Shown: positions 1 to 33,885 of the stretch, in pieces
Position numbering within the stretch: the first letter of the stretch is position 1
Layout of the letters: each line of letters opens with the position of its first letter
Virus record (IMG/VR): IMGVR_UViG_2703718813_000007
Length of the DNA: 35,331 nucleotides
Direction: 5' to 3' (one strand)
From: a virus
Taxonomy: Duplodnaviria > Heunggongvirae > Uroviricota > Caudoviricetes
Notes under the pieces: generated by a model
What the model was told of the DNA's origin: nothing
The model's input: the letters and a program-made list of their open reading frames with translations, nothing else
The model's database searches: none
Program-made: the position numbers and the translations under genes

Positions 1-1293
<1,293 letters not shown>

Positions 1294-1410
1294 TACCCAA
1301 TTTTTCTGAATCTAAAAAGCGCCTGCGGGTGGTTTTGGTGGTGTATTAACATATTGAAAATAAAGATTTTTTATTTTCATGTGCCCAGATAACGTCCATC
1401 TTTGAAACAA

Positions 1411-1450
1411 AAAGCCCGCAGTTTTTACGCTGCGGGCTTTGTTTTTCTTT
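1411..1450. terminator. Rho-independent terminator hairpin, usable in both directions (3' end of hok unit A transcript; possibly also serS)
   Basis: AAAGCCCGCAG (1411-1421) pairs with CTGCGGGCTTT (1430-1440) around an 8-nt loop. An A-run lies upstream and GTTTTTCTTT downstream. Confidence 0.5.
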
Positions 1451-1531
1451 GTGACTTGCGTGTGAGGGTGCTACTTTCGGCCTTACCCTGGCAACCGATT
1501 GACGGGGGATTACTCCCCCGTCGCGGTTTCT

Positions 1532-1672
1532 TTACTGTTTACACTGTAAGAACGCCGCAAACTCCGCTCCCCAGATGTTCATCCGTATTTCACACAGCGA
1601 ACCATGTAACATCCAGATGATGAGGATTGCCGTCACGCAGAACGTGATGGCCATAAGCGATTTTTGCGACAT
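1532..1672 (-). CDS. hok: Hok/Gef-family small membrane toxin, copy A (46 aa)
   Basis: Minus-strand ORF ATG at 1672 to TAA at 1532-1534, translating to MSQKSLMAITFCVTAILIIWMLHGSLCEIRMNIWGAEFAAFLQCKQ. It has an N-terminal hydrophobic helix and the Hok-family SLCEIR ... E.AAF pattern. The upstream sequence AAAGGAG lies about 11 nt before the ATG. Confidence 0.7.
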   Translation of the reverse strand: MSQKSLMAITFCVTAILIIWMLHGSLCEIRMNIWGAEFAAFLQCKQ

Positions 1673-1828
1673 GGCGCTTGCTCCTTTGTTGGAGAGGCGC
1701 TAACCTATCACTTGCTAAAGGTAATGTGGGTTAGGGCCTCGGGTTAAACAATATGTTTGACTCGGGGCCTTTCCACATCCGGCCTTCAGGTATTCCTTCC
1801 AGCCGTCAGCCGAAAGGCACCCGCATGT

Positions 1829-1857
1829 AATTTACTGATTTCCCTTTGTGTGCGCAA
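1829..1857 (-). promoter_or_regulatory. Candidate sigma70 promoter for the hok unit A mRNA (minus strand: -35 TTGCGC, 17 bp spacer, -10 TAAATT)
   Basis: The plus strand carries AATTTA at 1829-1834 and GCGCAA at 1852-1857, exactly 17 bp apart. The same arrangement recurs in unit B (2303-2331) and, with -35 TTGCAC, in unit C (3026-3054). Confidence 0.35.
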
Positions 1858-1890
1858 TGCTCAGTATTGAAGCTGTTGAGGGGAGACGGC

Positions 1891-1916
1891 AAAAAAAAAG
1901 CCCGCATATTGCGGGC
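1891..1916 (-). terminator. Terminator of hok unit B transcript
   Basis: GCCCGCA (1900-1906), loop TAT, TGCGGGC (1910-1916); the plus-strand A9 run at 1891-1899 gives a T-run after the hairpin on the minus strand. Confidence 0.5.
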
Positions 1917-2006
1917 AATGAAGTCAGTACGCTAACCCAAAAGGGTGCCATATCAGCCGAACCCGGCAACCGGATAGCGGGGGGCTTTCACCCCCGCTGC
2001 GGTTTC

Positions 2007-2147
2007 TTACTGTTTACACTGCAAGAACGCCGCAAATTGTGACCACATGATGTTAAGTCTGAACTCACACGGAGAACGGTGTATCATCCAGACGGTCAAC
2101 AACATGGTTAAGCATAAAATGCTCACGATGATCGTTTTTTGCGGCAT
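2007..2147 (-). CDS. hok: Hok/Gef-family small membrane toxin, copy B (46 aa)
   Basis: Minus-strand ORF ATG at 2147 to TAA at 2007-2009, translating to MPQKTIIVSILCLTMLLTVWMIHRSPCEFRLNIMWSQFAAFLQCKQ. AAAAGGAG precedes the ATG. The conserved SLCE is replaced by SPCE here. Confidence 0.65.
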   Translation of the reverse strand: MPQKTIIVSILCLTMLLTVWMIHRSPCEFRLNIMWSQFAAFLQCKQ

Positions 2148-2302
2148 AGCGCTTGACTCCTTTTACAGGGAGGCGCTAACCTTCCACTTGTCACGGTAGG
2201 AAGTGTTAGGGCCTCGGGTTAACATTTAAGTTGACTCGGGGCCTTTCCACATCCGGCCTTCAGGTAATCCTTCCAGCCATCAGCCGAAAGGCACCCGCGT
2301 GT

Positions 2303-2331
2303 AATGTACTGATTTCCCTTTGTGTGCGCAA
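2303..2331 (-). promoter_or_regulatory. Candidate promoter of hok unit B (minus strand: -35 TTGCGC, 17 bp, -10 TACATT)
   Basis: Positional equivalent of the unit A promoter; hexamers read directly from the sequence. Confidence 0.3.
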
Positions 2332-2615
2332 TGCCTGGCGTTGAAGCAGACAACGCTATCGCACTGGTGATATTCTTTCGCACAGGCTTACTCTGTCCTG
2401 TGTCGGGGCGATGAAAATGATTCTTTCAAGAAAAAAATTGAAATTGAGGTTGTGCAAAGTGGAACGGCTGATAATCCTGAGACGGTTACAAAAATAAAGG
2501 TTTCACGCCCGGAAGATCTTGAAGCGTGTGGTGTTATCGTGGAAAAAATTTGTGCTATTCATGCAAAATCAGTTAATACCACTGCCAGTAACGACCACAA
2601 TAAATACAACTGAAC

Positions 2616-2638
2616 AAAAAAGCCCGCATATTGCGGGC
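2616..2638 (-). terminator. Terminator of hok unit C transcript
   Basis: GCCCGCA (2622-2628), loop TAT, TGCGGGC (2632-2638), with a plus-strand A-run at 2616-2621. Confidence 0.5.
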
Positions 2639-2729
2639 AAATACGTCTGTAATCCAATGGAGAAAGGGGTGCCATATCGACCGAACCCGGCAACCGGATA
2701 GCGGGGGCTTTCACCCCCGCTGCGGTTTC

Positions 2730-2870
2730 TTACTGTTTACACTGCAAGAACGCCGCAAATTGTGACCACATGATGTTAAGCCTGAACTCACAGGGTGAGT
2801 TGTGTATCATCCAGACAATCATCAAAATAGTTATGCATAAAATGCTCACTATGATCGTTTTTTGCGGCAT
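2730..2870 (-). CDS. hok: Hok/Gef-family small membrane toxin, copy C (46 aa)
   Basis: Minus-strand ORF ATG at 2870 to TAA at 2730-2732, translating to MPQKTIIVSILCITILMIVWMIHNSPCEFRLNIMWSQFAAFLQCKQ. AAAAGGAG precedes the ATG. Confidence 0.65.
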   Translation of the reverse strand: MPQKTIIVSILCITILMIVWMIHNSPCEFRLNIMWSQFAAFLQCKQ

Positions 2871-3025
2871 AGCGCTTGACTCCTTTTACAGGGAGGCGCT
2901 AACCTTCCACTTGTCTAGGGTAGGAAGGGTTAGGCCTCGGGTTAAACAAATGTTTGACTCGGGGCCTTTCCACATCCGGCCTTCAGGTAATCCTTCCAGC
3001 CGTCAGCCGAAAGGCACCCGCGCGT

Positions 3026-3054
3026 AATTTACCTTTTACGTCCGTTACGTGCAA
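3026..3054 (-). promoter_or_regulatory. Candidate promoter of hok unit C (minus strand: -35 TTGCAC, 17 bp, -10 TAAATT)
   Basis: AATTTA at 3026-3031 and GTGCAA at 3049-3054 on the plus strand; the -35 sits inside a CCGTT-ACGTGC-AACGG palindrome. Confidence 0.3.
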
Positions 3055-3696
3055 CGGATGACGTGGCTGTTTTTCCTTCCCCTTCGCCATCCTTTTTCGG
3101 AGCAGTTGTGCAAAAGTGTGCAAAAGTGATTTTTGCTGCCACTCCCCGCCAGGCCGCGCAAGTTCTGGCTTTCCTGATTTTTTCGTTTTCGTCGTCGGAT
3201 CCTTTTTCAGATCTTCGATCGTGACGTAATTTTAAAAATCTCTTGTTATTCAGTGCATTAAAATTTTTCGGGATCCTCAGAAAGCCGGAGTTTTTGCACA
3301 CTTTTGCAAAACCTTGCACAAAGTGCAAAACCATTCAGAAGGGAAATCCTCAGTAATGGCGCGCCCTGGCGGGGTGTTTTGCACCCCTTTCGATTTGCAA
3401 AATTTATCGTACACAAATACCGGAGGCGTGTGCGGGGTAGCGCCGATTACGTCACTTTACGCGTTACGTCGCCCCCGAAAATTTCCGGCCATTTGCGGCG
3501 ATTTTGGGGCGCAGAAATCGTTTTCTGATGTCAGGGGATCGAATCGGGCTGGCGGGGTTATCTCTTCGTTACGTGGCGTTACGCGACGTTTTACGTGGGG
3601 ATTAAGTGGGGCGTTTCGTCCATCTTTTTTCTGCTGCGGACGGTTTTTTCGTGGTGGGTGATGTCCGGTGATGAATATTTTTTATTGTCCGGGAAT

Positions 3697-3720
3697 AAAA
3701 AAGGCCACATTGCGCGGCCT
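3697..3720 (-). terminator. Weak terminator after the last tail gene
   Basis: On the minus strand, AGGCC, loop GCGCAATGT, GGCCT, then TTTTTT, immediately after the stop codon at 3735-3737. Confidence 0.3.
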
Positions 3721-3734
3721 GTTAAAGTGAATGA

Positions 3735-5408
3735 TTATTCGATTATTGGTGAATATTTATTTTTAAGCTGGCGGCACTCCTGAGCGACCTGGCTGAACTG
3801 TGCGGCCTGCGGAGACGTGCCCGTTTTGGGGTGGGTATGTGATGCCGTAATATCGGCCAGCTCTTCCACCACATCGGCAAGGTCCGTCAGCATGGTCAGT
3901 ACATTAATGCCCTCGTTTCCCAGCTTCACCGTATCGCCAACCAGCTTCTGCGCCAGCGCAATACTGTGACGGACGCCCTTAATCTTTTCGGTAAGGCTGC
4001 CGCCCACGGTGTCCAGTGTGTCGCCTTCCACGTCGCGCTCACAGGTACCGGCAACCACCATCATGTGCCCGCCCGTGCTGATGCTGTAGTTCTCTTCAGT
4101 GATATGGGTGACTGCGCCAGCCTGAAGCGTGGATACGCCCAGGACGGTGGTTGTGTCGGTTGCCTGTATGGTGGTCTCCCGGCTGGTCAGGCTCCGCGTC
4201 TCCTCGTCTGCGCTCACCACGCGCTCGCGTGATGTCTCCTGTATCCGCTGGTCTGTCTGGCGCTCCCAGTCTCCGGCGACCGTCACGCGCTGCGATACGC
4301 CGTCGCGCTGTTGCTGCAACTGCTCGCCCGGCTTCACGTCGGGCAGATTGTGGCCCTCTGCCATTATCTGGCGGATGAAGGGCTTATCCGCCCGGCCTTC
4401 CACAAATCCCACTTCCACCAGGGTTCCGGGTGGCGGGAACTGGAACATGCCGGACTCACTGCCCGCCATGGGTACGGGGAGGGGAACGGCGTTATAAACG
4501 GGCGTATCCGCTGCCGGGTTGCCGTTCTCGTCAAGCAGCTGGAGATTCACCGCGTAGCGGGGTCTGAACGGGTCGGCAATATTGCCCGCGCTGACGGCTT
4601 CGGTCGGCGCCTCAACACGTGCCAGTTTGGGCAGGTGAAGCCCTGATGCCAGTTCAGGGAAGGCCTTTTCAGCCTGGCGACGGAAAGGGGACTTCTGGAG
4701 GGGGGCGCCGGTGGCTTTATTGCGTGGTGTCCACGTGATGGTCATGTTGTCATCTTCCAGCATGACCATCGTCAGGCGCTGACCGTTCACCTCCACACCC
4801 GGTCGCAGCGTCTGAATCATCGGGAGGGTCATACTGTGTCCGCCCGTTGATGCCTGGCTGAACTCGTGCGGGATGGTGACGGGGCGACCGGAAAACATCC
4901 CCTGCGCGGCGGCAGCGGCCATAATGCCGCCGTCCGGTAACGGATGCCAGATGTAGTCCGGTACGGAGAAAATACGCCCCAGACTGGCCAGCAGTTCGTA
5001 GCCCGTGCCGCTGTGCGTGAAATGCGGAACGGGCCTGTCAGTGTAAGCCGCGTTGTCCGGCAGGATGATTTCCAGCCCGCTGGTCTCACTCAGCCACTGT
5101 GTGACCGTGCGCATTGTCGGGTGCTGAAATGAACAGGGGAAGGGGTGATCAAGGATCCCCGCCATTTCACGAATCAGAAGCCGCACCGAGCCGTTTTCAG
5201 CGGGCTGGCTGCGTTCAACGTATCCGGTAAACCAGCGCACCAGGTCGTTTCCGTATCCGATATCGAGACGAACAGGGCGCCCGGTGTAGTTCTGCTCTGT
5301 TCTGGCCGTGATAAATCCGCGTCCGCACGCGTTCAGCTCAAGCATGACGGAACAGCTGACCAGCTGAATGGTGTCGTTACCCAGTAACAGACGTTTAGTG
5401 GGGTTCAT
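3735..5408 (-). CDS. Baseplate hub-spike fusion protein (N-terminal hub region plus C-terminal P2 gpV-like spike with apex motif), 557 aa
   Basis: The segment GTLVEVGFVEGRADKPFI resembles the OB-fold of the P2 gpV family, and the C-terminal ASHTHPKTGTSP resembles the gpV/gp5 apex motif (HTHKHPGDSGGTTGSP in P2 V as I recall it). Last gene of the tail operon. From memory only. Confidence 0.55.
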   Translation of the reverse strand: MNPTKRLLLGNDTIQLVSCSVMLELNACGRGFITARTEQNYTGRPVRLDIGYGNDLVRWFTGYVERSQPAENGSVRLLIREMAGILDHPFPCSFQHPTMRTVTQWLSETSGLEIILPDNAAYTDRPVPHFTHSGTGYELLASLGRIFSVPDYIWHPLPDGGIMAAAAAQGMFSGRPVTIPHEFSQASTGGHSMTLPMIQTLRPGVEVNGQRLTMVMLEDDNMTITWTPRNKATGAPLQKSPFRRQAEKAFPELASGLHLPKLARVEAPTEAVSAGNIADPFRPRYAVNLQLLDENGNPAADTPVYNAVPLPVPMAGSESGMFQFPPPGTLVEVGFVEGRADKPFIRQIMAEGHNLPDVKPGEQLQQQRDGVSQRVTVAGDWERQTDQRIQETSRERVVSADEETRSLTSRETTIQATDTTTVLGVSTLQAGAVTHITEENYSISTGGHMMVVAGTCERDVEGDTLDTVGGSLTEKIKGVRHSIALAQKLVGDTVKLGNEGINVLTMLTDLADVVEELADITASHTHPKTGTSPQAAQFSQVAQECRQLKNKYSPIIE

Positions 5409-5410
5409 GG

Positions 5411-5953
5411 TTACTCCAGCGCATCATTGACGGGTTTGAGGACCTTTTCTTCGAACCAGGTCATTTTCTCCGGTGTTTCGTCGGCCACGGTCCCGCCTTT
5501 TGCGCCGGGCGTCTGCGGCGTCTGTTTACGGCTGCTGCCGGGGGTGGCGCGTGCCTGGCGTTTTTCCGGTACGCTTCGTCTTTCGCGTAATGTGAAGCTG
5601 ACCTGCCAGGCGAGGCGGTCGGTCTGCTGCTGTGCGTCTATCTGCCCGGAAAATGTCCCTTCACGAAAGTTAATGGCGGCAGCGGTGGCGTTTGCGATAC
5701 GGTAAACTTTCAGGGCACCGTCCCCGGTGGTGGCAGAGGCCAGCTGGAAAATGCGCTGAAGGGCCCGCTCATTGTCAAAGGTGATCATCCCGGTTACGCG
5801 AAGCTCTTTGGCCTTGATGCCCTGCTCGGCGTTCGCGGTGCTCGATGTCTGGCCGGACTGGTCCTTTTCCTGGAACTGCATCGAGGGCGAAATCACCATG
5901 TTCTGCATGAAAATACCCTCACCATCAAGGGCGAGCAGTGCGGTCTGGCTCAT
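5411..5953 (-). CDS. Phage tail-associated protein, function unassigned (180 aa; start may be the internal ATG at 5908)
   Basis: ORF in the tail operon between the tail-fibre assembly gene and the hub-spike gene. The track start overlaps the upstream gene by 29 nt, while the internal ATG at 5908 is preceded by GAGGG. Confidence 0.4.
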   Translation of the reverse strand: MSQTALLALDGEGIFMQNMVISPSMQFQEKDQSGQTSSTANAEQGIKAKELRVTGMITFDNERALQRIFQLASATTGDGALKVYRIANATAAAINFREGTFSGQIDAQQQTDRLAWQVSFTLRERRSVPEKRQARATPGSSRKQTPQTPGAKGGTVADETPEKMTWFEEKVLKPVNDALE

Positions 5954-6650
5954 GGATCATTTTCCCCAGTTCGGTTAATGAGTCTGCCGCCAGGAGTGCG
6001 GCCACAGTATGTACGGCGGTCGGTGCCGGGATATCCTTCACCATGGCCGCCGCTGCGGCGCGGTGATACCCCCGGTACTGAAATACCCAGGCCTGCGCCT
6101 TCTGTTCTGCCAGTGTTCTGATCCCCTCTTCCAGTCCGGCAAGTGCGCCAGCCCGTCTGCTGATAAAGCGGCTTATCTGGCGGCGAAGCCCTGCGGCATC
6201 CGGGCGTTGTGCTGCCAGCTGCCTGGCCTGTGCTGCACGGGCGGCACTGACTGCGCTGCGTATTGTGGAAACGGAAAGATGCACAGGTGCGGGCAGGGTG
6301 TCGGTGGTGATCGGGATTTGCATTTTGTCAGTGCTCAGACTGGCGGCAGCCTGTGCCATGCGCTGTGCCTGCGTGAATACCGGCACGGGCAGAACGGTGG
6401 TCAGTGCCGCCATTGACTGTATAAAAAGATCGTGGGTGTTTTCGGCAATCATGATAATGGTCACGTCGCCGGATGCACGGCTTCCGGCCATTTTCCCGGC
6501 CAGCCAGTTTATGGCGTTCGGAGGGCTTAAATATACCCCCGATTCTTCATATCGTCCCAGCCCGTAAGTCCACGGTGTGACGGGGATGACGGAACAGCTC
6601 AGCGGGGGCATGTCAGCGCTGACGCTGATTGTTTTTCTTGTCCACGTCAT
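5925..6650 (-). CDS. Phage tail-associated protein, function unassigned (241 aa, Ala-rich)
   Basis: ATG at 6650 preceded by GGAGG, 11 nt after the stop of the tail-fibre assembly gene. Same strand and operon as the tail genes. No motif recognised. Confidence 0.4.
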   Translation of the reverse strand: MTWTRKTISVSADMPPLSCSVIPVTPWTYGLGRYEESGVYLSPPNAINWLAGKMAGSRASGDVTIIMIAENTHDLFIQSMAALTTVLPVPVFTQAQRMAQAAASLSTDKMQIPITTDTLPAPVHLSVSTIRSAVSAARAAQARQLAAQRPDAAGLRRQISRFISRRAGALAGLEEGIRTLAEQKAQAWVFQYRGYHRAAAAAMVKDIPAPTAVHTVAALLAADSLTELGKMIHEPDRTARP

Positions 6651-6661
6651 GGTGCCTCCGG

Positions 6662-7258
6662 TCAGCCTGCGTGATGATCCGGCGAAGGGGATTCAGGCCA
6701 GACAATATCCGGCGCGTTGCCCGTGTCTGTCCGGTTCAGTAATACCCGGTATTTTTTCCACAGGGGAAGCAGGGCGCTTTCATCGTCGGTCGCCATATTT
6801 AAATCCACGGCATCCTGGAGGATGTTTATTGTATTTGTTGCTTCCTGTATTAATTCCCGTTTTTTGTTCTCCGCCTCGCTCACCCGGTAAGCCTGTTCTG
6901 CTGCTTCATCCTTAACCCATGATGAACCATCCCACCGGCAGAACTCCCCGTCCGGTTTTATTTCTGTCACGTTTTCCGGTAACGGGCCCGGCTCAGTAAT
7001 CAGTAAGGCGCTCCCCGACTCCAGACGCCAGACGGCTTTACCCCGGTGATCTTCCATGAGGTGCCAGGCGTTTTCATCCTCATCAAAGATAGCCACGTGT
7101 CCTTCAGGAATGTCAGGCGGGGCAATGTCCGTTGAGTGCGCAGGCAGTCCGGTATGCGGAGGGATCCAGGCATCGCCTTCGCCGATAAATTCATTTGTTC
7201 CGGCTGACAGGTTGTAGATTTTAATTGTCTGTGGGTGTTCGCTCATTTTAAAGGTCAT
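6662..7258 (-). CDS. Tail fibre assembly chaperone (lambda Tfa-like), 198 aa
   Basis: The N-terminus [48 protein letters not shown] matches the lambda Tfa family start as I recall it. Its ATG overlaps the tail-fibre stop codon. Confidence 0.85.
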
Positions 7259-9318
7259 TATGCAAGCCTCACGATGTAGTTAAATGCGATGTTTTTGACG
7301 GTGTTTTCCGCATTACCGGTGGGGTTAATGGTCAGGCCGTGGCCATGTTGACCCAGTGCGAGCGTGTGGATGTGTTCGCCAATGCTTACCGAATGTGTGT
7401 GTTCCGAAACTCTGGCGATCAGGTTCGCCCCGGAGCCCGGCCCGTATGCGGTCCAGTCACCGCTGCCTTCCGGTGACGCGGTGGCGGTTCTTAATGATAT
7501 TGTTGCGCTGAACGGCCCCGCGCTGTTTGTTGTTTTTGTGCCGTAATTGAAGGATGAGGTCGTTTTTGTGCCAAGGTCAGTATTTGAGACGCTCCCTCCG
7601 TGGGTGTGCGATTTGATGCCGTCCTGCTCCTGTGACAATACCGCACGACCGCTGGCAGGTTTTCCCTTGATTGTCCAGCCACGCATATCCGGGATACGAC
7701 CATCCGGATAGGCTTTTGCCAGCAGGGGATATCGTGCTTTATCGAATGTCTGCCCCACCATGATGGCGTAACCGGCAGGTGGGGTGTCTGACGGCCACGG
7801 CAGGGGAACGCCTGCGGGTAACAACTCACTTGCAGGCAGTGCGCCGATGTCCTGTGGTGTGGGTTTGTTTTTGTCCGTGTAAGTGCGGTACCAGATGGTG
7901 CTTTTCCCTTTATTTAAAACAACCCCGGTGAACTGTGTGCGGAGGTACATGTCGGCAGGGTTTGGGCTTTCGAGACCTGTCGTGATCCTGATGATCCCCC
8001 CGTTGATGTCGCCTGATACTTCGATAAGGCAGCCTCCAAGGCAGATATCACCATAGCCCGTATCAGTGAGCACGCTGTGCCGGGAAAGTGAAATATTGGC
8101 TTTGAATATCCAGAGTCCTGGTCTGAAGGCGCCACGTTCATTCAGCCATTCCACGAATTGTTCTGTTGTCCAGCGTTGCCCTGCTTCACCCACGTACCCG
8201 TCTTTTGCATAAACGCGTGGTGCGCCCACGTTGATCAGGAACAGCTCCTTGTTGGGGATGTCCTCACCATTGCGGTTTTTCGCAAGCCGACCATCGGCGT
8301 TGTCCATGGCGATCTTTATAGCCTTTGGCGTGGCTGCCTGTGTCTCTGATGTACTGGTGGTGGCGCTGCTTAACTGTGTGAAGCCCTTTTCTTTCAGCGT
8401 TGCGTCCGGGTGGTTGCGTGATTTCTCGTGTTTTTTCAGAGCGTCCAGCCAGCGGCGTTCTTCCGGCGTTCCTCTGGGGCGCAGGTCAGTCACGTTGCCG
8501 TCTTCATCAATGTCAGCAAGGGCAAAAAAATATTGCCGGGCGGCCTCCTTCCTGTGTGCTTCCAGCAGGATCTCTTCCGTGGCGGCGGGGTCGGCCATGA
8601 TAATATCGTGCTCCACCGTCCATTCACTGGTGAGCGTACCGGTCCACCATACTGTCAGCCAGATACGGGACGGGAAGTCTGGCGTGGTCAGCGGTATGTC
8701 TTCGGTCAGCTCTGCGCGTAATCCCTCCACGTAACCGGTCCCTTTGCAGAGTGACCATCTTTCGCCTTTTTTAACCAGCCAGCCGTCCCCAAAGAATGCA
8801 GCGTTACCGTAAATATCGATGTTTTCCCGGCGCTGGCGCTCGTCCATGGCCGCCAGACGTGCCGTGAAGTCTATCTGCCAGGTCTGCGCCGGGGTGGTGA
8901 TACCTGTGGCTTCCTTCGCACCGCTGTACTCCATGAGCATGGAACGGACCAGCACATTACCTTCGTTACCGTTGTGGGTTCTGATTTTTTTCTGTGTGGG
9001 GGCGTGAACAATCATGGCCAGCGTGCTGGTTGCTTTGCTGACCAGTCCCACCCAGTTAAATTCAAAATCACCCAGCTCTGCCCCCAGGGTGACCGAATAA
9101 ACCACGGCATTCTCATTCACCACGCCGGTTTTGCCAACGGCCTGGCGGTGAACAATCTGATCTTCAGGCGGCAGGGTTTCGTCGGGGGATACCGGTGTTT
9201 CCGGGTTGAGGTCCGGGACGTTTGCAAAAACAAACTCATCCAGCACAACGGGGGTGCCTTCCGCCGCCTGCTGTGCCTTGAGCCGGATAAAGGCGCTGGT
9301 AATTACAGATTTCGCCAT
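7258..9318 (-). CDS. Tail fibre protein, 686 aa
   Basis: Contains the tail-fibre shaft motif [33 protein letters not shown] (shared with the P2 H family) and a C-terminal receptor-binding region ending [24 protein letters not shown], as in lambda Stf-type fibres. AAGGAG precedes the ATG at 9318. Confidence 0.85.
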
Positions 9319-19292: not shown

Positions 19293-19991
19293 TTACGCTG
19301 CATTAAGGGCGCTGATGCGTGCCCTGATGCGCGCCCTGATACTTTTTACGCCAGCGGTACGGCTCAGTGCTGCCGCCTGTGCCAGGTATGCGTCTGCCTT
19401 TTCCAGTACGGCAGTATCATTAATCGCGGTGGCTCTCGGTTTGCCTGCCTCGTCGCGCAGAAGATACAGCCCGGCAAATCTGAACCACTTCGCGCGGATT
19501 TCCTCATGCAGCCGCCACGTGGTGGTGACGTTCCTGAAGGTGCGCGAAAAATACGGCTCTATGCTGTGTCCGGCCTCGCTGTTGTCGGTGGCCCACTGCA
19601 ACACCGTGTCGGCCACGAAGGCGGGCAGGGTGCTGCGGAAGTTGTCCGGCGTGGCCTGGCCTTCACTGATGGCAATGTCTGCCCAGTCAAGGGCGCGACT
19701 CAGGTCGCCCGTGTCGAACAGCCAGATGATGCAGTACACCAGTACCGGGCAGGCGTGGCGCTTTCCGTCAGCGATATAGCGCTCCGCGACGGGCAGCCAG
19801 CGCGGCAGGAGAATGTCGCGCTTGAACGCCAGCCGCTCTTCGCGGACAGGAAGACTGCGCAGCCGTGCCACATCGCGATCAAGCTCCGCGCGTAACAGGT
19901 GGAAGCTGACCGGGGAGGCCGTCAGCGCTTCCCGGCGTTCGAGTGCCTCCTGTGTGCGGATTTTCGCCCGGTGTCGCTGGCAGGGTGTCAT
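19293..19991 (-). CDS. M: Terminase small (endonuclease) subunit, P2 gpM-like, 232 aa
   Basis: The N-terminus MTPCQRHRAKIRT and the segments ILLPRWLP and IIWLFDTGDLSRALDWADIA resemble P2 gpM. Confidence 0.85.
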   Translation of the reverse strand: MTPCQRHRAKIRTQEALERREALTASPVSFHLLRAELDRDVARLRSLPVREERLAFKRDILLPRWLPVAERYIADGKRHACPVLVYCIIWLFDTGDLSRALDWADIAISEGQATPDNFRSTLPAFVADTVLQWATDNSEAGHSIEPYFSRTFRNVTTTWRLHEEIRAKWFRFAGLYLLRDEAGKPRATAINDTAVLEKADAYLAQAAALSRTAGVKSIRARIRARISALNAA

Positions 19992-22098: not shown

Positions 22099-22264
22099 CG
22101 TGGCCTCTTTTACGTGAAAATCTGAAGAACTCCGGTGAGTGTCGGGATTTTTACAGCGGGGGGCTACCGGATTAATTCGGTTGCATTCGGATAACACGGG
22201 ATAGCCGAACACAGCCGAAATTTTCTGCCTGAATGCGGGCCGGATGCGCCGCCATAATGGGCGC
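22099..22264. promoter_or_regulatory. Divergent late-promoter region between O (minus) and P (plus)
   Basis: A 166 bp non-coding gap between divergently oriented capsid operons, as in P2. No Ogr-type dyad could be located by eye. Confidence 0.35.
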
Positions 22265-24070
22265 ATGGCTAAATATTCTGACGAAATCAAAGAGGCGGCG
22301 CGATCGCTTTACCTGAAGCGGTGGCACCCCCGCGATATTGCGGCGGAACTCGGTATTCCGCCGCGCACGGTTTACCACTGGTGTGATGTGGGGCAGTGGG
22401 CTACCCTGCTGCCCGCTGAATCCGTTGAGGACGTGATCGCCCGGCGTATTGATGTGCTGACCGGACGGGAGGGCAAGACAGAGTGTGAACTTGCCGAACT
22501 GCGTGAACTTATCGCGCAGCACGTGAAGATCATCGCCCAGAAAAACAAACACGCTGAAAGGATGGCGGAAATTGCCGCCCTGCGTCCGGCAGGGCATGAG
22601 GACGGCGTGGCTGCGGGGACCTGCGGCGGGGGAGAAGGGAAAAAGCGGCGCTACCGGAAAAACGACGTTTCCGGACTGACTGCTGAAATGCTGGATGAAT
22701 GGGCGCGTAAAAATCTTTATGCCTACCAGCTGCACTGCCGCGAGAACCGGCACCGTGAGCGCCGTTTCATCCTCAAGAGCCGCCAGATCGGCATGACCTG
22801 GTATTTTGCATGGGAGGCGTTCGAAGATGCGGTGGTGACCGGTGATAACCAGATTTTCTTTTCTGCGTCACGGGTACAGGCGGAAATCTTCCGTGAATAT
22901 ATTATTAACTTCGCCCTGCAGTTCGGGATCACGCTCACGGGTAAGCATATCCGTCTGAGCAATGGTGCAATGCTGCGTTTCCTGTCCACCAATGCCAGTA
23001 CCGCCCAGGGATTTAACGGCCACCTTTACGGCGATGAGGTGTTCTGGATCCCAAAATTCACGCGACTGCATGAAGTGGCCTCGGCAATGGCGACCCACGA
23101 CAAATACCGCACGACGTATTTTTCCACACCCAGCGCCAAAACCCACCAGGCTTATCTGGTCTGGAATGGTGACGACTGGCGCGGGGATGACCCGGCGCGT
23201 CGTGCTGTTGAGTTTCCGAAAGAAAGCGCGATGCGTGTGGGCTGTGAATGCCCTGACGGGATCTGGCGCTACATTATCCGGCTGGAAGAGGCGGTGGCGG
23301 GTGGCCTGTCTGCTCGGGTTGATATTGAACGTATCAGGAACCGCTACAATCCGACCACTTACGCGATGCTGTACGGCTGCGAGTTTGTTGACAGCAAGGA
23401 TGCGGTATTTAAGTTCTCCGAACTGGTCAGGTGCGAGGTGGAGATGGAGACGTGGGGTGACTACGATCCCACGGCGGCACGTCCGTTCGGCAATCGTGAG
23501 GTGTGGGCGGGCTTTGACCCGTCAAGGTCCGGGGATAATTCCACGTTTGTAATTGTGGCTCCGCCTGTCCATGAGGGCGAGCGGTTCCGTGTGCTCGCCG
23601 TCTGGCAGTGGCAGGGATTTAACTTCACCTGGCAGGCCGATCAGATCCGCGAACTGATGCAGCGTTTTAACATTACCTATATCGGCATAGATATCACCGG
23701 TATCGGGAAAGGGGTGTTTGATATCGTCAGTCGCTTTGCGCCACGTGAGGCTAACGCCATTCTTTACAGCGTGGAGAGCAAAAACCGCCTGGTGATGAAA
23801 ATGATAGACGTGGTGGCCCATAAGCGTATCGAGTGGGCGAAAGACGCCATTGATGAGGCCAGCCGTGAACGCACGGAGATCCCCGCGTCGTTCATGTCCA
23901 TACGCCGCACCACCACAAAAAGCGGTAACGCGCTGACGTTCGTGGCGGAACGGTCGGATGTTACGGGGCATGCGGATGTGTTTTTTGCCATTTCGCACGC
24001 CGTGATTAATGAGCCTGTAGATTATGACTATGAACGCCCGTCCACATGGGCCTTCGGGAAAGCCGCATGA
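22265..24070 (+). CDS. P: Terminase large (ATPase) subunit, P2 gpP-like, about 601 aa
   Basis: Size, position and general similarity to P2 P. The ATG at 22265 aligns with the P2 P start; the track ORF begins at 22244. Confidence 0.88.
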   Translation: MAKYSDEIKEAARSLYLKRWHPRDIAAELGIPPRTVYHWCDVGQWATLLPAESVEDVIARRIDVLTGREGKTECELAELRELIAQHVKIIAQKNKHAERMAEIAALRPAGHEDGVAAGTCGGGEGKKRRYRKNDVSGLTAEMLDEWARKNLYAYQLHCRENRHRERRFILKSRQIGMTWYFAWEAFEDAVVTGDNQIFFSASRVQAEIFREYIINFALQFGITLTGKHIRLSNGAMLRFLSTNASTAQGFNGHLYGDEVFWIPKFTRLHEVASAMATHDKYRTTYFSTPSAKTHQAYLVWNGDDWRGDDPARRAVEFPKESAMRVGCECPDGIWRYIIRLEEAVAGGLSARVDIERIRNRYNPTTYAMLYGCEFVDSKDAVFKFSELVRCEVEMETWGDYDPTAARPFGNREVWAGFDPSRSGDNSTFVIVAPPVHEGERFRVLAVWQWQGFNFTWQADQIRELMQRFNITYIGIDITGIGKGVFDIVSRFAPREANAILYSVESKNRLVMKMIDVVAHKRIEWAKDAIDEASRERTEIPASFMSIRRTTTKSGNALTFVAERSDVTGHADVFFAISHAVINEPVDYDYERPSTWAFGKAA

Positions 24071-25119
24071 GCAAGAAACGCAGAAACAAAACGTCACGCG
24101 TGACGAAAAAAGCATTCACGCCCGCACGTGGCAGCACAATCACGTTTGGTCAGCCGGAACCGGTGCTGACCACCGGCACGGACTACCATAACATCTGGTA
24201 TGACAACGAACACAACCACTGGCAGCTGCCGATTAACCGCCTGGCACTGGCGCAGCTCCCGAACCTTAACGCCCAGCACGGTGGGGTGCTGTATGCCCGC
24301 CGTAACATGGTGGCGGGGGGCTATACCGGTGGTGGCCTCACAACGGACCAGATGGAACAGGCGGTATTTGACTACCTGTTGTTCGGCGATCTCGCCCTGC
24401 TCAAGGTGCGTAACGTATTCGGCGACGTCGTGGCACTTGAGCCGCTTCCGTCGCTGTATCTCCGGCGCCGCAAAACCGGTGAGTTCGTGGTGCTTCAGGA
24501 AGGCCCCGCGCTGGTCTATACGCCGGAAGATATTATCTTTCTGCGGATGTATGATCCGCGTCAGCAAATTTACGGGCTGCCGGATTATATCGGTGGCATT
24601 CACTCGGCGCTGCTGAACAGCGAGGCCAGCCTTTTTCGTCGCCGTTACTACAACAACGGGGCGCATATGGGGTTTTTGCTGTATACGAACGACCCGGGGA
24701 TCACCACGGAGATGGAGGATGAGATCCGCGAGAAGGTGGCGGAGTCTAAGGGGCTGGGAAATTTCCGCAATCTGTACATCAACATCCCCAAAGGTTCGCC
24801 GGATGGGGTGAAAATTATTCCGATTGGTGAGGTGAGCGCCAAGGATGAATTTTCAAACATCAAGGGGATCAGCGCCCAGGATGTGTTTACGGCACACCGC
24901 TTTCCTGCCGGTCTTGCGGGGATCATCCCCACGAACGGGGCCACCATCCCTAACCCGGAAACGACGCGTGAAACGTACCGCAAGGATGAGGTGATACCGC
25001 TTCAGCGTAAAATCATGAACGCCGTGAACAGCGATCCCGATATACCGGAACACCTTTATCTTCGTTTTGATGTGGATGCCGGGCATGTGGCGGAAGAAAA
25101 AGCGGTGCCGGTCGGGTAA
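24067..25119 (+). CDS. Q: Portal protein, P2 gpQ-like, about 350 aa
   Basis: The ATG at 24067 overlaps the P stop (ATGA). Portal-sized protein downstream of terminase in the P-Q operon. Confidence 0.85.
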   Translation: MSKKRRNKTSRVTKKAFTPARGSTITFGQPEPVLTTGTDYHNIWYDNEHNHWQLPINRLALAQLPNLNAQHGGVLYARRNMVAGGYTGGGLTTDQMEQAVFDYLLFGDLALLKVRNVFGDVVALEPLPSLYLRRRKTGEFVVLQEGPALVYTPEDIIFLRMYDPRQQIYGLPDYIGGIHSALLNSEASLFRRRYYNNGAHMGFLLYTNDPGITTEMEDEIREKVAESKGLGNFRNLYINIPKGSPDGVKIIPIGEVSAKDEFSNIKGISAQDVFTAHRFPAGLAGIIPTNGATIPNPETTRETYRKDEVIPLQRKIMNAVNSDPDIPEHLYLRFDVDAGHVAEEKAVPVG

Positions 25120-25156: not shown

Positions 25157-25420
25157 ATGCGGATTTTTAAAGCCCGGTGTCCGGACTGTGGCGCACCTGC
25201 TGTCATCCGGAAGACAGACTGGAAAACCCCTGAACTTGCGGATCTGTACTGTGCATGCAGTGATGTCGAATGCGGGCATACCTTCGTCTGTACGATGACC
25301 TTTTCCCATACCCTCAGCCCCGGCGCCCGCTCCGGTCGCAATATGGTGAAGTTCCTGGTGGATGCCATGCGCCCGGAAGATCGCCGGTATGCGCTTGAAC
25401 TACTGTCGCGGCGTTCCTGA
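25157..25420 (+). CDS. ogr: Ogr/Delta-family zinc-finger late-gene activator, about 87 aa
   Basis: Cys pattern CPDCG ... YCACSDVECGHTF matches the Ogr/Delta C-x2-C ... C-x4-C-x2-TF signature. The ATG at 25157 is preceded by GGGAGG. Confidence 0.75.
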   Translation: MRIFKARCPDCGAPAVIRKTDWKTPELADLYCACSDVECGHTFVCTMTFSHTLSPGARSGRNMVKFLVDAMRPEDRRYALELLSRRS

Positions 25421-26504: not shown

Positions 26505-26909
26505 TTACCTGCGTGATTGTCTGCCAGCGGCTGAATGCACATAGCGGGCAATTGCCGCTTTGCGGTTAATCGATGCCAGTGTTCTGGTCAGTTCTGCGTT
26601 GTGTTTGTGTGCCTGCTCTTCGTGGTACTGCCGCATGATTTTTCCGGCAGGCGTGAGCGGCTCCGGCTCTCCGGGCGGACGGCGCGGACGAACGGCGACA
26701 AGCCAGCTGCGGTTGGTGCTGTCCGGTCGTCCGTTGAGTATGTCGGTGATGATGGCCGTGGTGGTGCGATCGGGACTGACGACCGTGATTTCCAGCTCAT
26801 CGCCCGGTTGTGGCCCCGTGGCAATGTTGTTCAGGGTCAGTAAGGGCGTGCGCTGGCGCATCATTTCGTCAAAACGCTGGCGCTGCATGGCGCAATAAAA
26901 GCGGGTCAT
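26505..26909 (-). CDS. Hypothetical protein, 134 aa, translationally coupled to replication gene A
   Basis: The ATG at 26909 overlaps the A stop codon (ATGA). Occupies the position of P2 orf91. High-GC backbone composition. Confidence 0.55.
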   Translation of the reverse strand: MTRFYCAMQRQRFDEMMRQRTPLLTLNNIATGPQPGDELEITVVSPDRTTTAIITDILNGRPDSTNRSWLVAVRPRRPPGEPEPLTPAGKIMRQYHEEQAHKHNAELTRTLASINRKAAIARYVHSAAGRQSRR

Positions 26910-29425
26910 TGTGGCGCCTCCGTATTCGGTGCGGGGGTGATATCAATGCGGCGGGTGCTGTCATTCCAGTACGCGGTGCGTCCGTCAGCCAGGCGCACGC
27001 GGGCACCGTGACGGACGGAAACGACGGCGCTTTCATGCAGCTGCACGCCCAGCGCATCAAGCTCGCGGGTGATTTGTGCGGTGATGTGTGGCTCAGCGGT
27101 CAGTGCGACACTCACGCGAACGCCGCCAGCGGACGCACTGATGCCGCCGTTTTTCACGGTTTCCGTGTCAGGTTGCGGGTTTTTCAGCTGCCTGGTGAGT
27201 TGTTTTCGCTCTGTGGGGGTCAGTGACCTTAACCATTCACCCAAATCACCTTCCGGCAGGGTAAGTCGCTGCTCCCTGCGTCCGTCCGGCTGCCTTTCTG
27301 GCGGGTCGTTTATGGTCAGATTCTGGTCAGGGGGACAGTTATTGCCACGAGTCCAAGGTGCGGCAAAGCCGCACTCAACGTCAAAACCCTCGTCCGTGCG
27401 GTCTTCGTTTTCCGGCTTACGTCTGACCAGTTTCCAGGTGTCCGGGTGGGTGCATATGGTGTAGCGCTCCCCGAGTGACGGGGCGCGGACGCCGTAAATG
27501 CGTTGCGGGAATTCGCCGTAGTCGTTGGCCTCTTCGGCAGTTTCGTATGCGGTGCGGACTAGGTACGTGTTGCGGGGAATGAGCACACCACCCTGGCGGG
27601 TGATATAGGTGGCAAAACATCCCACGTCGGCGGCGGCCAGTATGGCGTCAATGTCGTCATGGTCCAGACGCTGCGGGGCAGCCGGGTTACGGGCCATCTG
27701 CCCGGCAAGGCGGCGGAGTTCTCGCCATACCTGGCGGGGAGGGATACCGAAGAACTGGAACTGGCGGATGCGGTGAAGGGCCGCCCAGCCGATGGCGTTC
27801 TCCACGGTTTCGGCCATGGTTTTGCCTGATTCCTTATCGACGTAAGGTTTGCCGGTTTTCGGGTCATTCCCCATGAAGGCGCTGGCGTCCAGGTTCTTAC
27901 CGATATAGGTCGCGATATAGCTCGCCGGTGTGCCTTTTGCCGGGTCGATTTTTTCGCATTTAAAACGCGGGGAGATATCATCACCCAGCTCTGCGCGGTC
28001 CTCCCTGATGGCGGCGTTGCGCATGATTTCAGTGATACGGGCTTCGTTTTCCGGGCTGGTGAATACCAGCATGTGCCAGTGCGGTGTACCGTCGTGGTGG
28101 GGCTCCACGGTGCGCACGCCGTACCAGCCCAGCCCGGCCTTGTTGATGGCCCTGCGGACGGCGGCGAAAAAGCGGTAAACCAGATAATCACTGGCATCAC
28201 GTACCGTTGCTCCGCAGTATTTCGGGTTCAGGCTGCCGTCATCGTTCACGCTGTGAAAACGGGAAGGGGCTGTGACGGTGACGAAAAACGCCACGTCGCC
28301 GCGTGCTTCGGCGACCTGCTCCATTCCCCGGACGCAGGCCATCATCTCGTTACGGCGGTTACGCGGATTAGAGAGACCTGCCCAGTAGATATCCTCAAGG
28401 CTGAACCGTTCTCCCTCTTCGTTCTCGATGTCCCAGGCCTTCAGAAAATCGCGGGTGCGCTGGCGTTTTTCGCGCCAGTCCAGTAACGCTTCATGGCTGA
28501 TATATACCGATGTCTTACGTGACACCAGACCTGCGGCGCGTAACAGTTCTTCACGCCAGATGTCCCGGAGGTGTCTTAACTGACTGTTCCACCATGTCGC
28601 ACAGGAAAGGCGCATGACCGCACCCGGCACCTGTTCCGGGTCGGGGGCGGTGCGGCGGTCGGGCCTGATTTCCAGCGACGGCCAGCAGGGTGGCGTGATA
28701 CCCAGTTTTAACGCCATGTGTGCCAGTGGCTGGTAGGTCAGTAACCAGGTGAACAGGTCATCGTCACCCCTGCCGGTCTTTTCGATGACCTCATCACATG
28801 CGCGCTCCAGTGCGGTGGAAAACGCGGTGGCGGTCAGGGTGGCAAGGCGCTGGATTTCGTCACGGCTCAGCTGCGGCAGCATAAGCAGTTCATCCAGCCG
28901 TTCGCGCGCGGCGGTGGCCTTAAAGGCCGGGGTGGCAAAGCGATCATTCACACGGGCGATACGTTTCAGGCGGGCACGCAGCCCGTGACGAACGAAGTTA
29001 TCCGCCGCGTATGCGCTGTTGTTCTTAAGCCCTTCCCGGCGTGCGCTCTCCTGTTTGCGGCTCAGGCGTGCCAGGTCACGGATGAGCGGACCGGCAAGAA
29101 ACGGCGGCAGGGCGCGCAGCTCTGCCATGGCTTCAGATACCAGCGTTGGCGGATTCTCGTGTTTGTGCCGCGCCAGTTTTTCCAGTCTGATCCGACGCTC
29201 TTCGTCGTGGTGAAGATGCGAATTAATTCGCTTGCCTTCGTCTGTGTTTGTCAGGAAGTCGACGGTCTCTTCATCCAGTCTTGCATCAATGCGAATGTCT
29301 TCGTTGATGTAGCTCTGAATGGCCTGGCGCAATGCGGTTGGTTGCGCTCTGCCGAATGTTTCAGGATCGATAACCGGTAGCGGGGCGTTCCACGGGTACG
29401 CCAGTTGTGCGTTATGGTCGCTCAT
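26906..29425 (-). CDS. A: Replication initiation endonuclease (rolling-circle), P2 gpA-like, about 839 aa
   Basis: Size and position match P2 A; the central region contains a His-hydrophobic-His cluster (PHWHMLVF) and downstream Tyr residues (ASYIATYIGK) typical of rolling-circle initiators. ATG at 29425; the track begins at a GTG at 29434. Confidence 0.88.
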   Translation of the reverse strand: MSDHNAQLAYPWNAPLPVIDPETFGRAQPTALRQAIQSYINEDIRIDARLDEETVDFLTNTDEGKRINSHLHHDEERRIRLEKLARHKHENPPTLVSEAMAELRALPPFLAGPLIRDLARLSRKQESARREGLKNNSAYAADNFVRHGLRARLKRIARVNDRFATPAFKATAARERLDELLMLPQLSRDEIQRLATLTATAFSTALERACDEVIEKTGRGDDDLFTWLLTYQPLAHMALKLGITPPCWPSLEIRPDRRTAPDPEQVPGAVMRLSCATWWNSQLRHLRDIWREELLRAAGLVSRKTSVYISHEALLDWREKRQRTRDFLKAWDIENEEGERFSLEDIYWAGLSNPRNRRNEMMACVRGMEQVAEARGDVAFFVTVTAPSRFHSVNDDGSLNPKYCGATVRDASDYLVYRFFAAVRRAINKAGLGWYGVRTVEPHHDGTPHWHMLVFTSPENEARITEIMRNAAIREDRAELGDDISPRFKCEKIDPAKGTPASYIATYIGKNLDASAFMGNDPKTGKPYVDKESGKTMAETVENAIGWAALHRIRQFQFFGIPPRQVWRELRRLAGQMARNPAAPQRLDHDDIDAILAAADVGCFATYITRQGGVLIPRNTYLVRTAYETAEEANDYGEFPQRIYGVRAPSLGERYTICTHPDTWKLVRRKPENEDRTDEGFDVECGFAAPWTRGNNCPPDQNLTINDPPERQPDGRREQRLTLPEGDLGEWLRSLTPTERKQLTRQLKNPQPDTETVKNGGISASAGGVRVSVALTAEPHITAQITRELDALGVQLHESAVVSVRHGARVRLADGRTAYWNDSTRRIDITPAPNTEAPQ

Positions 29426-29832
29426 GCGTCGCACTCCCCGGCAGTCGCCGCCTGAAACGCCGCGCGGTACAGCACGAGAAGGCGCTGGTATTCACCGATA
29501 AAGTCTTCTGCGGTGTATATGCCTTTCACGGCCACGCTGTGGTTTGTCATTTCCAGAACAAGCGTCATCTCTGACGACGACCAGCTGATGGCGGTGCTGT
29601 CGGTTCCGTTGATGTGAAATAAACCAAAACCATCACCTTTCACGTCCACGCGGTAACGGTCGTCAACGGTGAAGGAGAAATCCCCGTATGTGGTGACGCG
29701 TCTGGCGGCCTGTTTACAGGCGCGGCGGTAATAGTCGTGCCAGTCGTTGAGGCGGGAAGCCAGCCGGGGCTCCACTGCCCACATCCAGTTAAAAAAATCC
29801 TGAATATCTGAAAGTCCCTTAACGTTCTTCAT
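29422..29832 (-). CDS. Hypothetical early protein, 136 aa
   Basis: ATG at 29832 preceded by GGAGG; its stop overlaps the A start. Function unknown. Confidence 0.55.
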   Translation of the reverse strand: MKNVKGLSDIQDFFNWMWAVEPRLASRLNDWHDYYRRACKQAARRVTTYGDFSFTVDDRYRVDVKGDGFGLFHINGTDSTAISWSSSEMTLVLEMTNHSVAVKGIYTAEDFIGEYQRLLVLYRAAFQAATAGECDA

Positions 29833-29900
29833 GAGAACCTCCGGTCACAGACGTGCGGAAGCCTCCCGCGCACGGGTGCGGGATGGCTTCAGGATGTTGT

Positions 29901-33824: not shown

Positions 33825-33885
33825 TTGTTATCCTCTCGCACAGGTGCGCCTATTGCACCTTATGAAGGTTTGTTTTGGGTTGTGA

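Follow-up and report, generated by a model that had tools for sequence, protein, structure and literature searches.

A repeat-dense, non-coding stretch (positions 3031-3735) separates three hok/sok toxin-antitoxin units from the last tail gene in the window, by which we mean the whole 35,331-bp stretch of DNA analysed here. What purpose do its repeats serve? The original prediction placed the prophage attachment site at this location and considered a small inverted-repeat element, a protein-binding array or a small RNA. Comparison with related phages leads us to conclude that the stretch is very probably the terminase recognition and cutting site for the packaging of an HP1/P2-type prophage, and positions 3100-3600 can be assigned with high confidence to the cos region of a 34-kb HP1-type (Peduoviridae) E. 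coli prophage in the serS terminator. The observations bearing directly on this reading are the homology between the putative cosN and the annotated termini of other phages, the HP1-type location, the fixed positions of the repeat sites and the clade-wise switch in their sequence. We compared 65 non-redundant cos regions (25 of class A and 40 of class B), together with those of HP1 and P2. Offsets below are counted from cosN, with negative values on the att/int side, and the features are collected in Table 1.

Table 1. Features of the probable cos region and associated prophage genes, with positions in the window
Feature	Position	Strand	Remarks
attL core CCTGCGGG	1322-1329		True left prophage junction inside the serS terminator; outside 3031-3735
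Three tandem hok/sok toxin-antitoxin units	1403-3035	-	Between attL and cos; direct-repeat families D1/D2
Hok ORFs	1532-1672, 2007-2147, 2730-2870	-	RefSeq 'Hok/Gef family protein', three times
Far-left M2 copies	3036-3066	+	TTACG at 3036 and 3045; about -389, -380; this clade only
Distal M1 pair, TGTGCAAAA twice	3107-3125 (3107-3115, 3117-3125)	-	10 bp apart; about -318, -308
Inverted M2 copy GTGACGTAA	3222-3229	-	About -200
Four-site M1 array: TTTTGCACA, TTTTGCAAAA, CTTGCAC, GTGCAAAA	3292-3331		10-bp spacing; -133, -123, -112, -102
cosN-proximal M1 sites: TTTTGCAC (3377-3384), TTTGCAAAA (3394-3403)	3377-3403	+	About -48, -31
Putative cosN, cleavage/cohesive-end sequence GGCGTGTGCGGGGTAG	3425-3440		16 nt; aligned with the termini of relatives
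cosN-proximal M2 sites: TTACGTC, TTTACGC, TTACGTC	3447-3468	+	+22, +32, +39
Distal M2 cluster: CGTTACGTGG, CGTTACGCG, TTTACGTGG	3567-3595	+	+144, +154, +166; starts 10 and 12 bp apart; repeat family D14
Rho-independent terminator, late tail operon	3702-3720	-	8-pair stem, then TTTTTTATT; 15 bp past the stop of the 557-aa gene
Last tail/baseplate gene, HP1 orf35 homologue, 557 aa	3735-5408	-	PHROG 2258 'baseplate protein', E 6e-242; anchor gene adjoining cos
orf34 homologue	5411-5953		Pfam HP1_ORF34, E 5e-54
orf33 homologue	5925-6650		Homology to HP1 orf33
Terminase small subunit (TerS), gpM-type	19293-19991	-	PF05944, E 2e-36
Terminase large subunit (TerL), gpP-type	22244-24070	+	N-terminal helix-turn-helix; Terminase_6N, Terminase_6C, Terminase_5

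Gene layout and packaging genes

The region lies directly downstream of the HP1 orf35 homologue, the last tail gene, the product of which is 38% identical to that of HP1 orf35 over its full length. HP1 itself shows the order orf33-orf34-orf35, 192 bp, cos, attP and int, and in HP1-type Peduoviridae cos is located past the last tail gene (Lavigne et al.). The candidate cos of the window likewise follows orf33-34-35 on the attP/int side of the map, away from the portal gene, as it does in HP1 and HP2 (Hpunavirus, Peduoviridae). Many sequenced relatives have their orf35 homologue ending 160-310 bp from one end of the record, and K139 carries an annotated terminator at the place equivalent to that of the late tail operon terminator in Table 1. 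Gene order and the M1/M2 offsets described below also agree with those of phiO18P, ESSI-2 and the Salmonella phages SW5 and SI7, which are HP1-type Peduoviridae of other Gammaproteobacteria.

The P2 cos, by contrast, is located beside the portal gene Q and generates 19-nt ends, whereas here ogr occupies that place and cos comes after the last tail gene. The portal gene stops at 25119 and the Ogr/Delta gene starts at 25157, so that there is no room for a portal-side cos in this phage. With ogr filling the gap and no P2-type cos 19-mer in the whole window, even when three mismatches were allowed, a P2-style cos beside the portal gene was ruled out.

The phage encodes both subunits of a P2-type terminase, gpM and gpP, the family also used by P2, 186 and P4. 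The N-terminal 110 residues of TerS are the packaging-protein segment that diverges most between the motif classes: compared with ESSI-2, they show 46% identity, whereas the C-terminal part of TerS shows 65% and TerL and the portal protein 55-61%. This divergence fits a terminase that reads the repeats, yet phylogeny alone would give the same pattern.

A conserved 16-bp block homologous to phage genome termini

The putative cosN was identified by its similarity to the ends of characterised relatives. The annotated 16-nt cosL/cosR of the Aeromonas phage phiO18P (GGCGGGAGCGGATGAG) aligns with it at 11 of 16 matching positions, and the 15-nt terminal repeat of the Cronobacter phage ESSI-2 (GCGGGTGCGGTGTAG) at 14 of 16. 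The ESSI-2 record finishes with GCAGGCGGGTGCGGTGTAG and opens with the terminal repeat, and the SW5 record breaks within the block between GGCGGGTGC and GCGGTGTAG (14/16 matches); in both, the end of the record may stem from experiment or from assembly. Among the 65 non-redundant relatives, the block GGCGGGTGCGGTGTAG is conserved to at least 90% at each position. The 16-mer of the window clade carries two substitutions, G5T and T12G, in this otherwise invariant block, which could signify either a diverged specificity or a decayed site.

The K139-like phage PV94 was demonstrated experimentally to have 16-nt 5' overhangs (PMC3986222), and by analogy the overhang at the putative cosN would also be 16 nt and 5'. 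For K139 itself, terminally redundant ends have been reported, and its record has no break at the cosN block. None of the IMG/VR contigs ends at the block either, and the metagenome contigs therefore give no evidence on termini. Like the putative cosN, the P2 cohesive end (GGCGAGGCGGGGAAAGCAC) is G-rich, and the two share GCGGGG. The cohesive end of HP1, with an annotated length of 9 nt (GGGGAAGGA in the orientation of the window), can be aligned only loosely. For the cos of P2, 186 and P4, a 55-bp core is quoted (Ziermann and Calendar, 1990, as cited in PMC5694545 and PMC9122126).

Two repeat families at fixed distances from the putative cosN

Two families of short repeats, M1 and M2, accompany the block, and both occur at fixed distances from cosN in the 65 relatives, HP1 and P2. 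The M1 sites of the window lie on the att/int side of cosN. All five exact copies of TTTTGCAC in the window fall within 3108-3384, and of the 16 copies of TTTTGCA in the window eight are in the region, where 0.32 would be expected (binomial P 3e-10). The direct repeats originally predicted at 3108-3128, with inverted copies at about 3296-3330, are real; they correspond to the tandem TGTGCAAAA at 3107-3125 and to inverted copies at 3292-3330.

Five M1 positions are common to both classes; 25 regions have TTGCA at them and the other 40 have TTTCA/TGAAA. The positions -131/-130, -120, -111 and -101/-102 carry the class-specific motif in 18-23 of the 25 class-A and 35-39 of the 40 class-B regions. 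The position closest to cosN is occupied in every class-A region (25/25 at -30/-29) and in 38/40 class-B regions (at -29). Class-A relatives additionally carry M1 at -46 (23/25) and at about -310 (16/25), where ESSI-2 has its own version of the motif at -309 and -286. The HP1 layout is similar, with TTTCA-type sites at -141, -131, -121, -41 and -30, and P2 has TGCAT at -123, -111, -101 and -29 from its annotated cosL.

The M2 sites of the window are found on the tail-gene side of cosN, apart from the inverted copy at about -200 and the two far-left copies. The CGTTACG heptamers of M2 are present as predicted at 3043, 3462, 3567 and 3577, which are four of the eight copies in the window (P 1e-5). 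TTACG, the core of the heptamer, occurs nine times in the region (3036, 3045, 3225 in inverted orientation, 3447, 3457, 3464, 3569, 3579 and 3591) among 86 copies in the window, against 1.7 expected (P 6e-5). A site at +22 together with sites between +39 and +51 is found in the window, SW5, ESSI-2, phiO18P and K139; HP1 has TTCCG/TTACG at +20, +37 and +50. The sequence at +22 is TTACG, TTCCG or TTTTGT depending on the clade, with TTCCG in 19/25 class-A and TTTTGT in 25/40 class-B regions. The inverted M2 copy is located at -200 in the window, -202 in SW5, -203 in phiO18P and -213 in HP1, and in each of these phages it matches the phage's own M2 version (CGTAA or CGGAA). HP1 contains further copies of TTCCGTGG on the same side as the distal M2 cluster. 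Unlike phiO18P, ESSI-2, SW5 and SI7, the window clade combines the two substitutions in the 16-mer with TTACG as M2 and has extra M2 clusters from +144 to +166 and at about -389/-380; the cos-side cargo differs as well.

A blastn search of the phage collection with 3031-3735 as the query yielded no DNA match. This search was too insensitive, because SW5 holds a homologous core about 69% identical to the region and yet went unmatched.

The presumable reader of the repeats

The fixed positions of the repeats and their co-variation by clade favour the protein-binding array among the functions first proposed. The same two features, position and co-variation, suggest that the protein reading M1 and M2 is the terminase rather than another one. 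Terminase binding to M1 and M2 is, however, a prediction from sequence, and the cosN assignment could be right while the sites are bound by a host nucleoid protein, DnaA, a phage transcription factor or an excisionase for regulation or DNA bending. Three exact copies of the relaxed DnaA box TTWTNCACA in the region (3107-3115, 3117-3125 and 3292-3300; seven in the window against 2.1 expected) and four GATC sites within 3198-3275 would fit such a reader. The GATC enrichment is not significant (P 0.12), however, and the M1 motif becomes CTGAAA/TTTCA in 40 of the 65 relatives and in HP1 with its positions kept. A motif that switches sequence while keeping position argues for a co-evolving phage-encoded reader and against DnaA or another host protein, and we consider a reader other than terminase unlikely.

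An iteron-type replication origin with DnaA boxes and GATC sites was ruled out as well. The DnaA boxes are not kept in relatives, being replaced by CTGAAA/TTTCA in the same 40 of 65, GATC is not enriched, and the replication protein of the phage is of the P2 gpA type, a nicking protein. The P2 replication origin is located inside the A gene.

Coding and RNA content

The description of the region as devoid of convincing ORFs holds. For the longest ORFs (101, 115 and 74 aa), Pfam lists only YqjK with 14 bits (E 0.066), which is not significant and well below the cut-off of 28.1; the translations are of low complexity, and indels among relatives are numerous. Nor did Pfam return anything significant for the RefSeq 'hypothetical proteins' of strain 48 that overlap the region.

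That the region encodes a small regulatory RNA or an RNA structure acting in cis is very improbable. The plus-strand hairpins with T-runs that had suggested one do exist (3371-3387 and 3609-3621), and a third lies on the minus strand (3720-3702), but three such terminator-like sites do not exceed the chance level (2.1 ± 1.6 in shuffled sequences). Relatives (GGGGTGCTTTGCACAAAA) have lost the stem at 3371-3387 but retain the M1 motif embedded in it. Between 3031 and 3735, the Rfam 15 covariance models matched nothing, whether the gathering threshold or E ≤ 1 was applied, and promoter-like sites numbered none against 0.8 expected.

The attachment site and the cargo beside the probable cos

The attachment site expected in the region was found elsewhere. 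Aligned with the empty serS-dmsA locus of K-12, the window is identical up to gcgcctgcggg at 1329 and then diverges; a second copy of the 8-bp core CCTGCGGG follows about 90 bp past the int stop in NZ_CP027323, which carries the same prophage, and is succeeded by K-12 sequence and dmsA. Since K-12 identity ends at 1329 and the core is repeated after int, the region sits 1.7-2.4 kb within the prophage; it contains neither the switch from chromosome to prophage nor a core repeated at the other end. A phage integrated at ytfP-tamB carries the same region (96.6% identical), and the homologous core is present in a phage at yegQ. Judged from these sequences, the region is a property of the phage and not of the integration site.

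It is therefore hardly credible that the region represents an attL/attP arm whose repeats are arm-type sites for Int, Xis or Cox. In HP1-type phages attP is indeed close to cos, and Cox/Apl arrays consist of repeated sites at 10-bp spacing, which the M1 array resembles. The crossover core is nevertheless 1.7 kb distant, three hok/sok units intervene, and the motif positions track cosN, not att. Cox or CI operators were ruled out, as the cI-cox intergenic region (33825-33927) has different repeats (GGTTATCTT).

The distance from cos to the att core is 2.1 kb in this prophage including the hok/sok units, unlike HP1, in which attP lies 250 bp from cos. Three sub-threshold Rfam matches to sok were obtained, the last at 2859-3019.

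The inverted repeat

An invertible or small mobile element bounded by the two 21-nt arms (3105-3125 and 3292-3312, 95% complementary, 166 nt apart) is scarcely tenable: all 12 E. coli copies (12/12) align in one piece and in one orientation, no recombinase gene is adjacent, and in relatives the arms shrink to single M1 copies at the same positions, which makes the inverted repeat a side effect of M1 binding sites gathered in two clusters.

Packaging by the putative cos and its specificity

The cos region of the window is ordinary and to be expected in a phage, and the arrangement of its binding-site repeats is well conserved; its type is already known from HP1-type Peduoviridae, and this copy adds another member. 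After induction and excision, the phage DNA would circularise, and terminase, composed of the gpM-type small and the gpP-type large subunit, would assemble on the M1 and M2 site families around the 16-bp cosN. It would then nick cosN in a staggered fashion, creating cohesive ends, and feed the cut DNA into proheads. The prophage is presumably still able to package its DNA.

The lambda cos comprises cosQ, cosN and cosB, and its R sites are bound by gpNu1. By analogy, the region described here would resemble lambda cos in having a nicking site between arrays of short sites with the small terminase subunit as the reader (general statement in PMC7617512). The proteins and sequences are unrelated to those of lambda, however; here arrays flank cosN on either side, and a search for the IHF consensus (WATCAANNNNTTR) that allowed one mismatch found none.

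The two site families on either side of the near-invariant cosN may constitute a modular code for packaging specificity, co-evolving with the DNA-binding modules of the terminase, namely the N-terminus of gpM and the N-terminal helix-turn-helix of gpP. More tentatively than the cos assignment itself, the window clade, with its TTACG-type M2, extra M2 clusters and doubly substituted cosN, might represent a third, previously undescribed specificity, a proposal that we regard as possible but doubtful. Such a specificity could insulate the phage against cross-packaging by co-resident P2-like prophages and could block hijacking by P4-like satellites, which copy the cos of their helper.

The value of the assignment lies chiefly in annotation, as a cos at this location defines where the virion genome of this prophage type begins and ends. 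In addition, the 65 cos regions, in which the motifs keep their offsets but occur in two or three versions, provide a data set for DNA recognition by P2-family terminases, which has been far less dissected than that of lambda. The cos region is present in 12 of 5,426 complete E. coli genomes; it is unannotated in RefSeq, and spurious 'hypothetical protein' calls cover part of the copies. The hok/sok units, replaced by AbiH in one relative, fill a cos-adjacent cargo slot, in agreement with the variable cargo hotspots adjoining cos in P2 and P4 (PMC9122126), and the number of hok/sok copies in relatives is three, two or one.

A probable packaging site downstream of the late tail genes

The window begins with E. 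coli serS and ends at a phage integrase stop codon, and the DNA in between appears, judged from its sequence, to be a complete Peduoviridae prophage. The repeat-dense, non-coding region at 3031-3735 (705 bp) is very probably the cos (packaging) site of this HP1-type prophage and not its attachment site. The gene on its right encodes a 557-aa baseplate protein with 38% identity, over the full length, to HP1 orf35, and its neighbours match HP1 orf34 (Pfam HP1_ORF34) and orf33. The gene order of HP1 is orf33-orf34-orf35, followed by 192 bp, cos, attP and int. The window offers no space for a portal-adjacent cos, and no P2-like cos sequence was found anywhere in it.

We fetched 80 loci encoding relatives of the 557-aa protein and aligned the DNA downstream of the gene. 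The alignment contains a near-invariant block, GCAGGCGGGTGCGGTGTAGCGCCG, which reads GGAGGCGTGTGCGGGGTAGCGCCG in the window. Virion-derived records end within this block: GCGGGTGCGGTGTAG stands at either end of the ESSI-2 record, the SW5 record breaks between GGCGGGTGC and GCGGTGTAG, and the aligned 16-mer of phiO18P, GGCGGGAGCGGATGAG, is annotated as cosL and also as cosR. Because the record ends and annotated cos of these relatives lie inside the block, we assigned GGCGTGTGCGGGGTAG as the putative terminase cleavage site, cosN. For a K139-like vibriophage, 16-nt 5' overhangs have been shown experimentally (PMC3986222). The P2/186/P4 cos core (Ziermann and Calendar, 1990, as cited in PMC5694545 and PMC9122126) is related to the probable HP1-type cos described here.

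Features of the prophage and its flanks (positions in the window)
Feature	Position	Strand	Remark
serS	1-1293		E. coli gene
att core	1322-1329		CCTGCGGG; about 1095-1102 in locus L103
Three tandem hok/sok toxin-antitoxin units	1403-3035	-	Hok ORFs 1532-1672, 2007-2147, 2730-2870
Insert between hok units 2 and 3	2340-2610		250 bp
Small ORF in insert	2452-2613	+	53 aa
Putative cosN	3425-3440
Terminator of late tail operon	3720-3702	-	hairpin
Baseplate protein gene	3735-5408	-
Tail-fibre gene	7258-9318	-	686 aa
Small terminase gpM	19293-19991	-
Large terminase gpP	22244-24070	+	helix-turn-helix at N-terminus
Portal	24046-25119	+
Ogr/Delta zinc-finger gene (late activator)	25157-25420	+	immediately after portal
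P2 gpA-type replication protein	26906-29434	-
Transcription-regulator-like protein	29819-30439	-	206 aa
C4 antisense RNA and isrK matches	30185-30382	-	Rfam, 82.6 and 62 bits
int stop codon	35331
P2-family capsid gene			in prophage
cox-like and cI-like regulators, int			in prophage

Repeat families at fixed distances from cosN

The repeats described in the original prediction are all present where it placed them. All five copies of TTTTGCAC in the 35-kb window lie within 3108-3384, and the region holds 8 of the 16 window copies of TTTTGCA (0.32 expected), half of the eight CGTTACG copies and 9 of 86 TTACG copies (1.7 expected). They form two families flanking cosN, M1 (TTTGCA-type) and M2 (TTACG/CGTTACG-type), which keep fixed offsets from cosN in the window, SW5, ESSI-2, phiO18P and HP1, and for M1 only also in P2. 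M1 sites lie at about -132, -122, -111, -101, -47 and -31, and a distal pair is found near -310. For M2 the positions are +22 and +39 to +51; the window, SW5, phiO18P and HP1 also have an inverted copy near -200. The P2 cos shares the spacing plan of the HP1-type phages: TGCAT occurs at -123, -111, -101 and -29 from cosL, TGACGG at +26 and +70.

Among 65 non-redundant cos regions, every position of the cosN 16-mer is at least 90% conserved. M1 falls into two classes, TTGCA (n = 25) and TTTCA/TGAAA (n = 40), each keeping identical offsets in 72-100% of its members. M2 at +22 reads TTACG in the window clade, TTCCG in SW5, phiO18P, K139 and HP1, and TTTTGT in the ESSI-2 clade; the inverted copy at about -200, where seen, matches the M2 version of its own phage (CGTAA or CGGAA). 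The window clade stands out by three features: two substitutions in a 16-mer that is otherwise invariant, the TTACG version of M2 and extra distal M2 clusters.

Since positions are kept while all copies change sequence together, a reader protein presumably co-evolves with the sites. The obvious candidates would be the small terminase subunit (TerS) and the N-terminal helix-turn-helix of gpP, and we infer from these sequence patterns that the repeats may bind terminase. Between the motif classes, no packaging-protein segment has diverged more than the N-terminal part of TerS, a pattern consistent with reading by terminase but not decisive. It is unlikely that cosN is correctly placed and some protein other than terminase reads the arrays.

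As for other functions of the region, three exact TTWTNCACA matches would suit a DnaA-box replication origin, but most relatives lack a DnaA box at the motif, and the phage has a gpA-type nickase as its replication protein. The small RNA proposed originally is not borne out, as the region has neither an Rfam match at E ≤ 1 nor a promoter-like site, and relatives do not conserve the stem. Hairpins followed by T-runs do exist, yet three such sites are the chance level (2.1 ± 1.6 in shuffles), and the one at 3371-3387 is formed by an M1 site that is self-complementary in the window clade only. The proposed inverted-repeat element, with 21-nt arms at 3105-3125 and 3292-3312 (95% complementary in a repeat search), consists of the distal M1 pair and, opposite to it, the central array of M1 sites; an inverton is contradicted, since all 12 copies have the same orientation and no recombinase gene is adjacent.

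The expectation of no convincing ORF held, the ORFs crossing the region being low-complexity translations without significant Pfam match. RefSeq "hypothetical proteins", e.g., WP_001367437.1 and WP_447309350.1, span the cos region in related loci (L004, 5953-6288 and 6426-6680; L112, 4999-5289; L113, 4953-5288). In the window their frames are not kept, the encoded sequences are of low complexity, and the two compared with Pfam had no match; these calls are probably spurious.

Attachment site and distribution

Identity with the empty K-12 serS-dmsA site stops at 1329, within the serS terminator. Another genome that carries this prophage has a second copy of the 8-mer CCTGCGGG about 90 bp past the int stop, and K-12 sequence and dmsA follow this copy. 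This 8-mer is therefore the att core, and the repeat region lies 1.7-2.4 kb inside the prophage, which contradicts the attachment site originally placed there. With this core, the serS terminator is a hotspot for prophage integration; in other strains, e.g., NZ_CP145707, a different, P2-like prophage (hok-ogr-D order) occupies it.

The full 705-bp region occurs in 12 of 5,426 complete E. coli genomes (96.6-98.7% identity); distant blastn against the phage collection gave no match. It is also present in a prophage adjoining ytfP-tamB, with one hok unit, and a prophage integrated at yegQ has a diverged homologue and carries AbiH instead of hok. Thus, the region belongs to the phage and not to the integration site.

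Variable cargo and other genes

Relatives of the same phage carry two hok/sok units (strain 48, Z1323MEC0001) or one (JNEC-KY202). The DNA between cos and att thus holds variable cargo (three, two or one hok/sok units, or AbiH in a relative) and looks like a cos-adjacent hotspot of the type described for P2 and P4 (Rousset et al., 2022, PMC9122126). The insert separating the second and third hok units occurs in that spacer only, and the equivalent of its small ORF is annotated in strain 48 as a 67-aa hypothetical protein.

The Ogr/Delta gene fills the post-portal slot, which holds cos in P2. The adjacent C4 and isrK matches overlap the 5' part of the regulator-like ORF, and the pair suggests a possible P1/P7-style antisense-controlled antirepressor module in an HP1-type phage. 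The tail-fibre gene, intact in the window, is annotated as two pseudogene pieces about 500 bp apart in several E. coli strains that carry the prophage (L001, 10250-11492; L004, 10228-12288; L112; L113); an insertion or inversion could account for this, or a difference in assembly.
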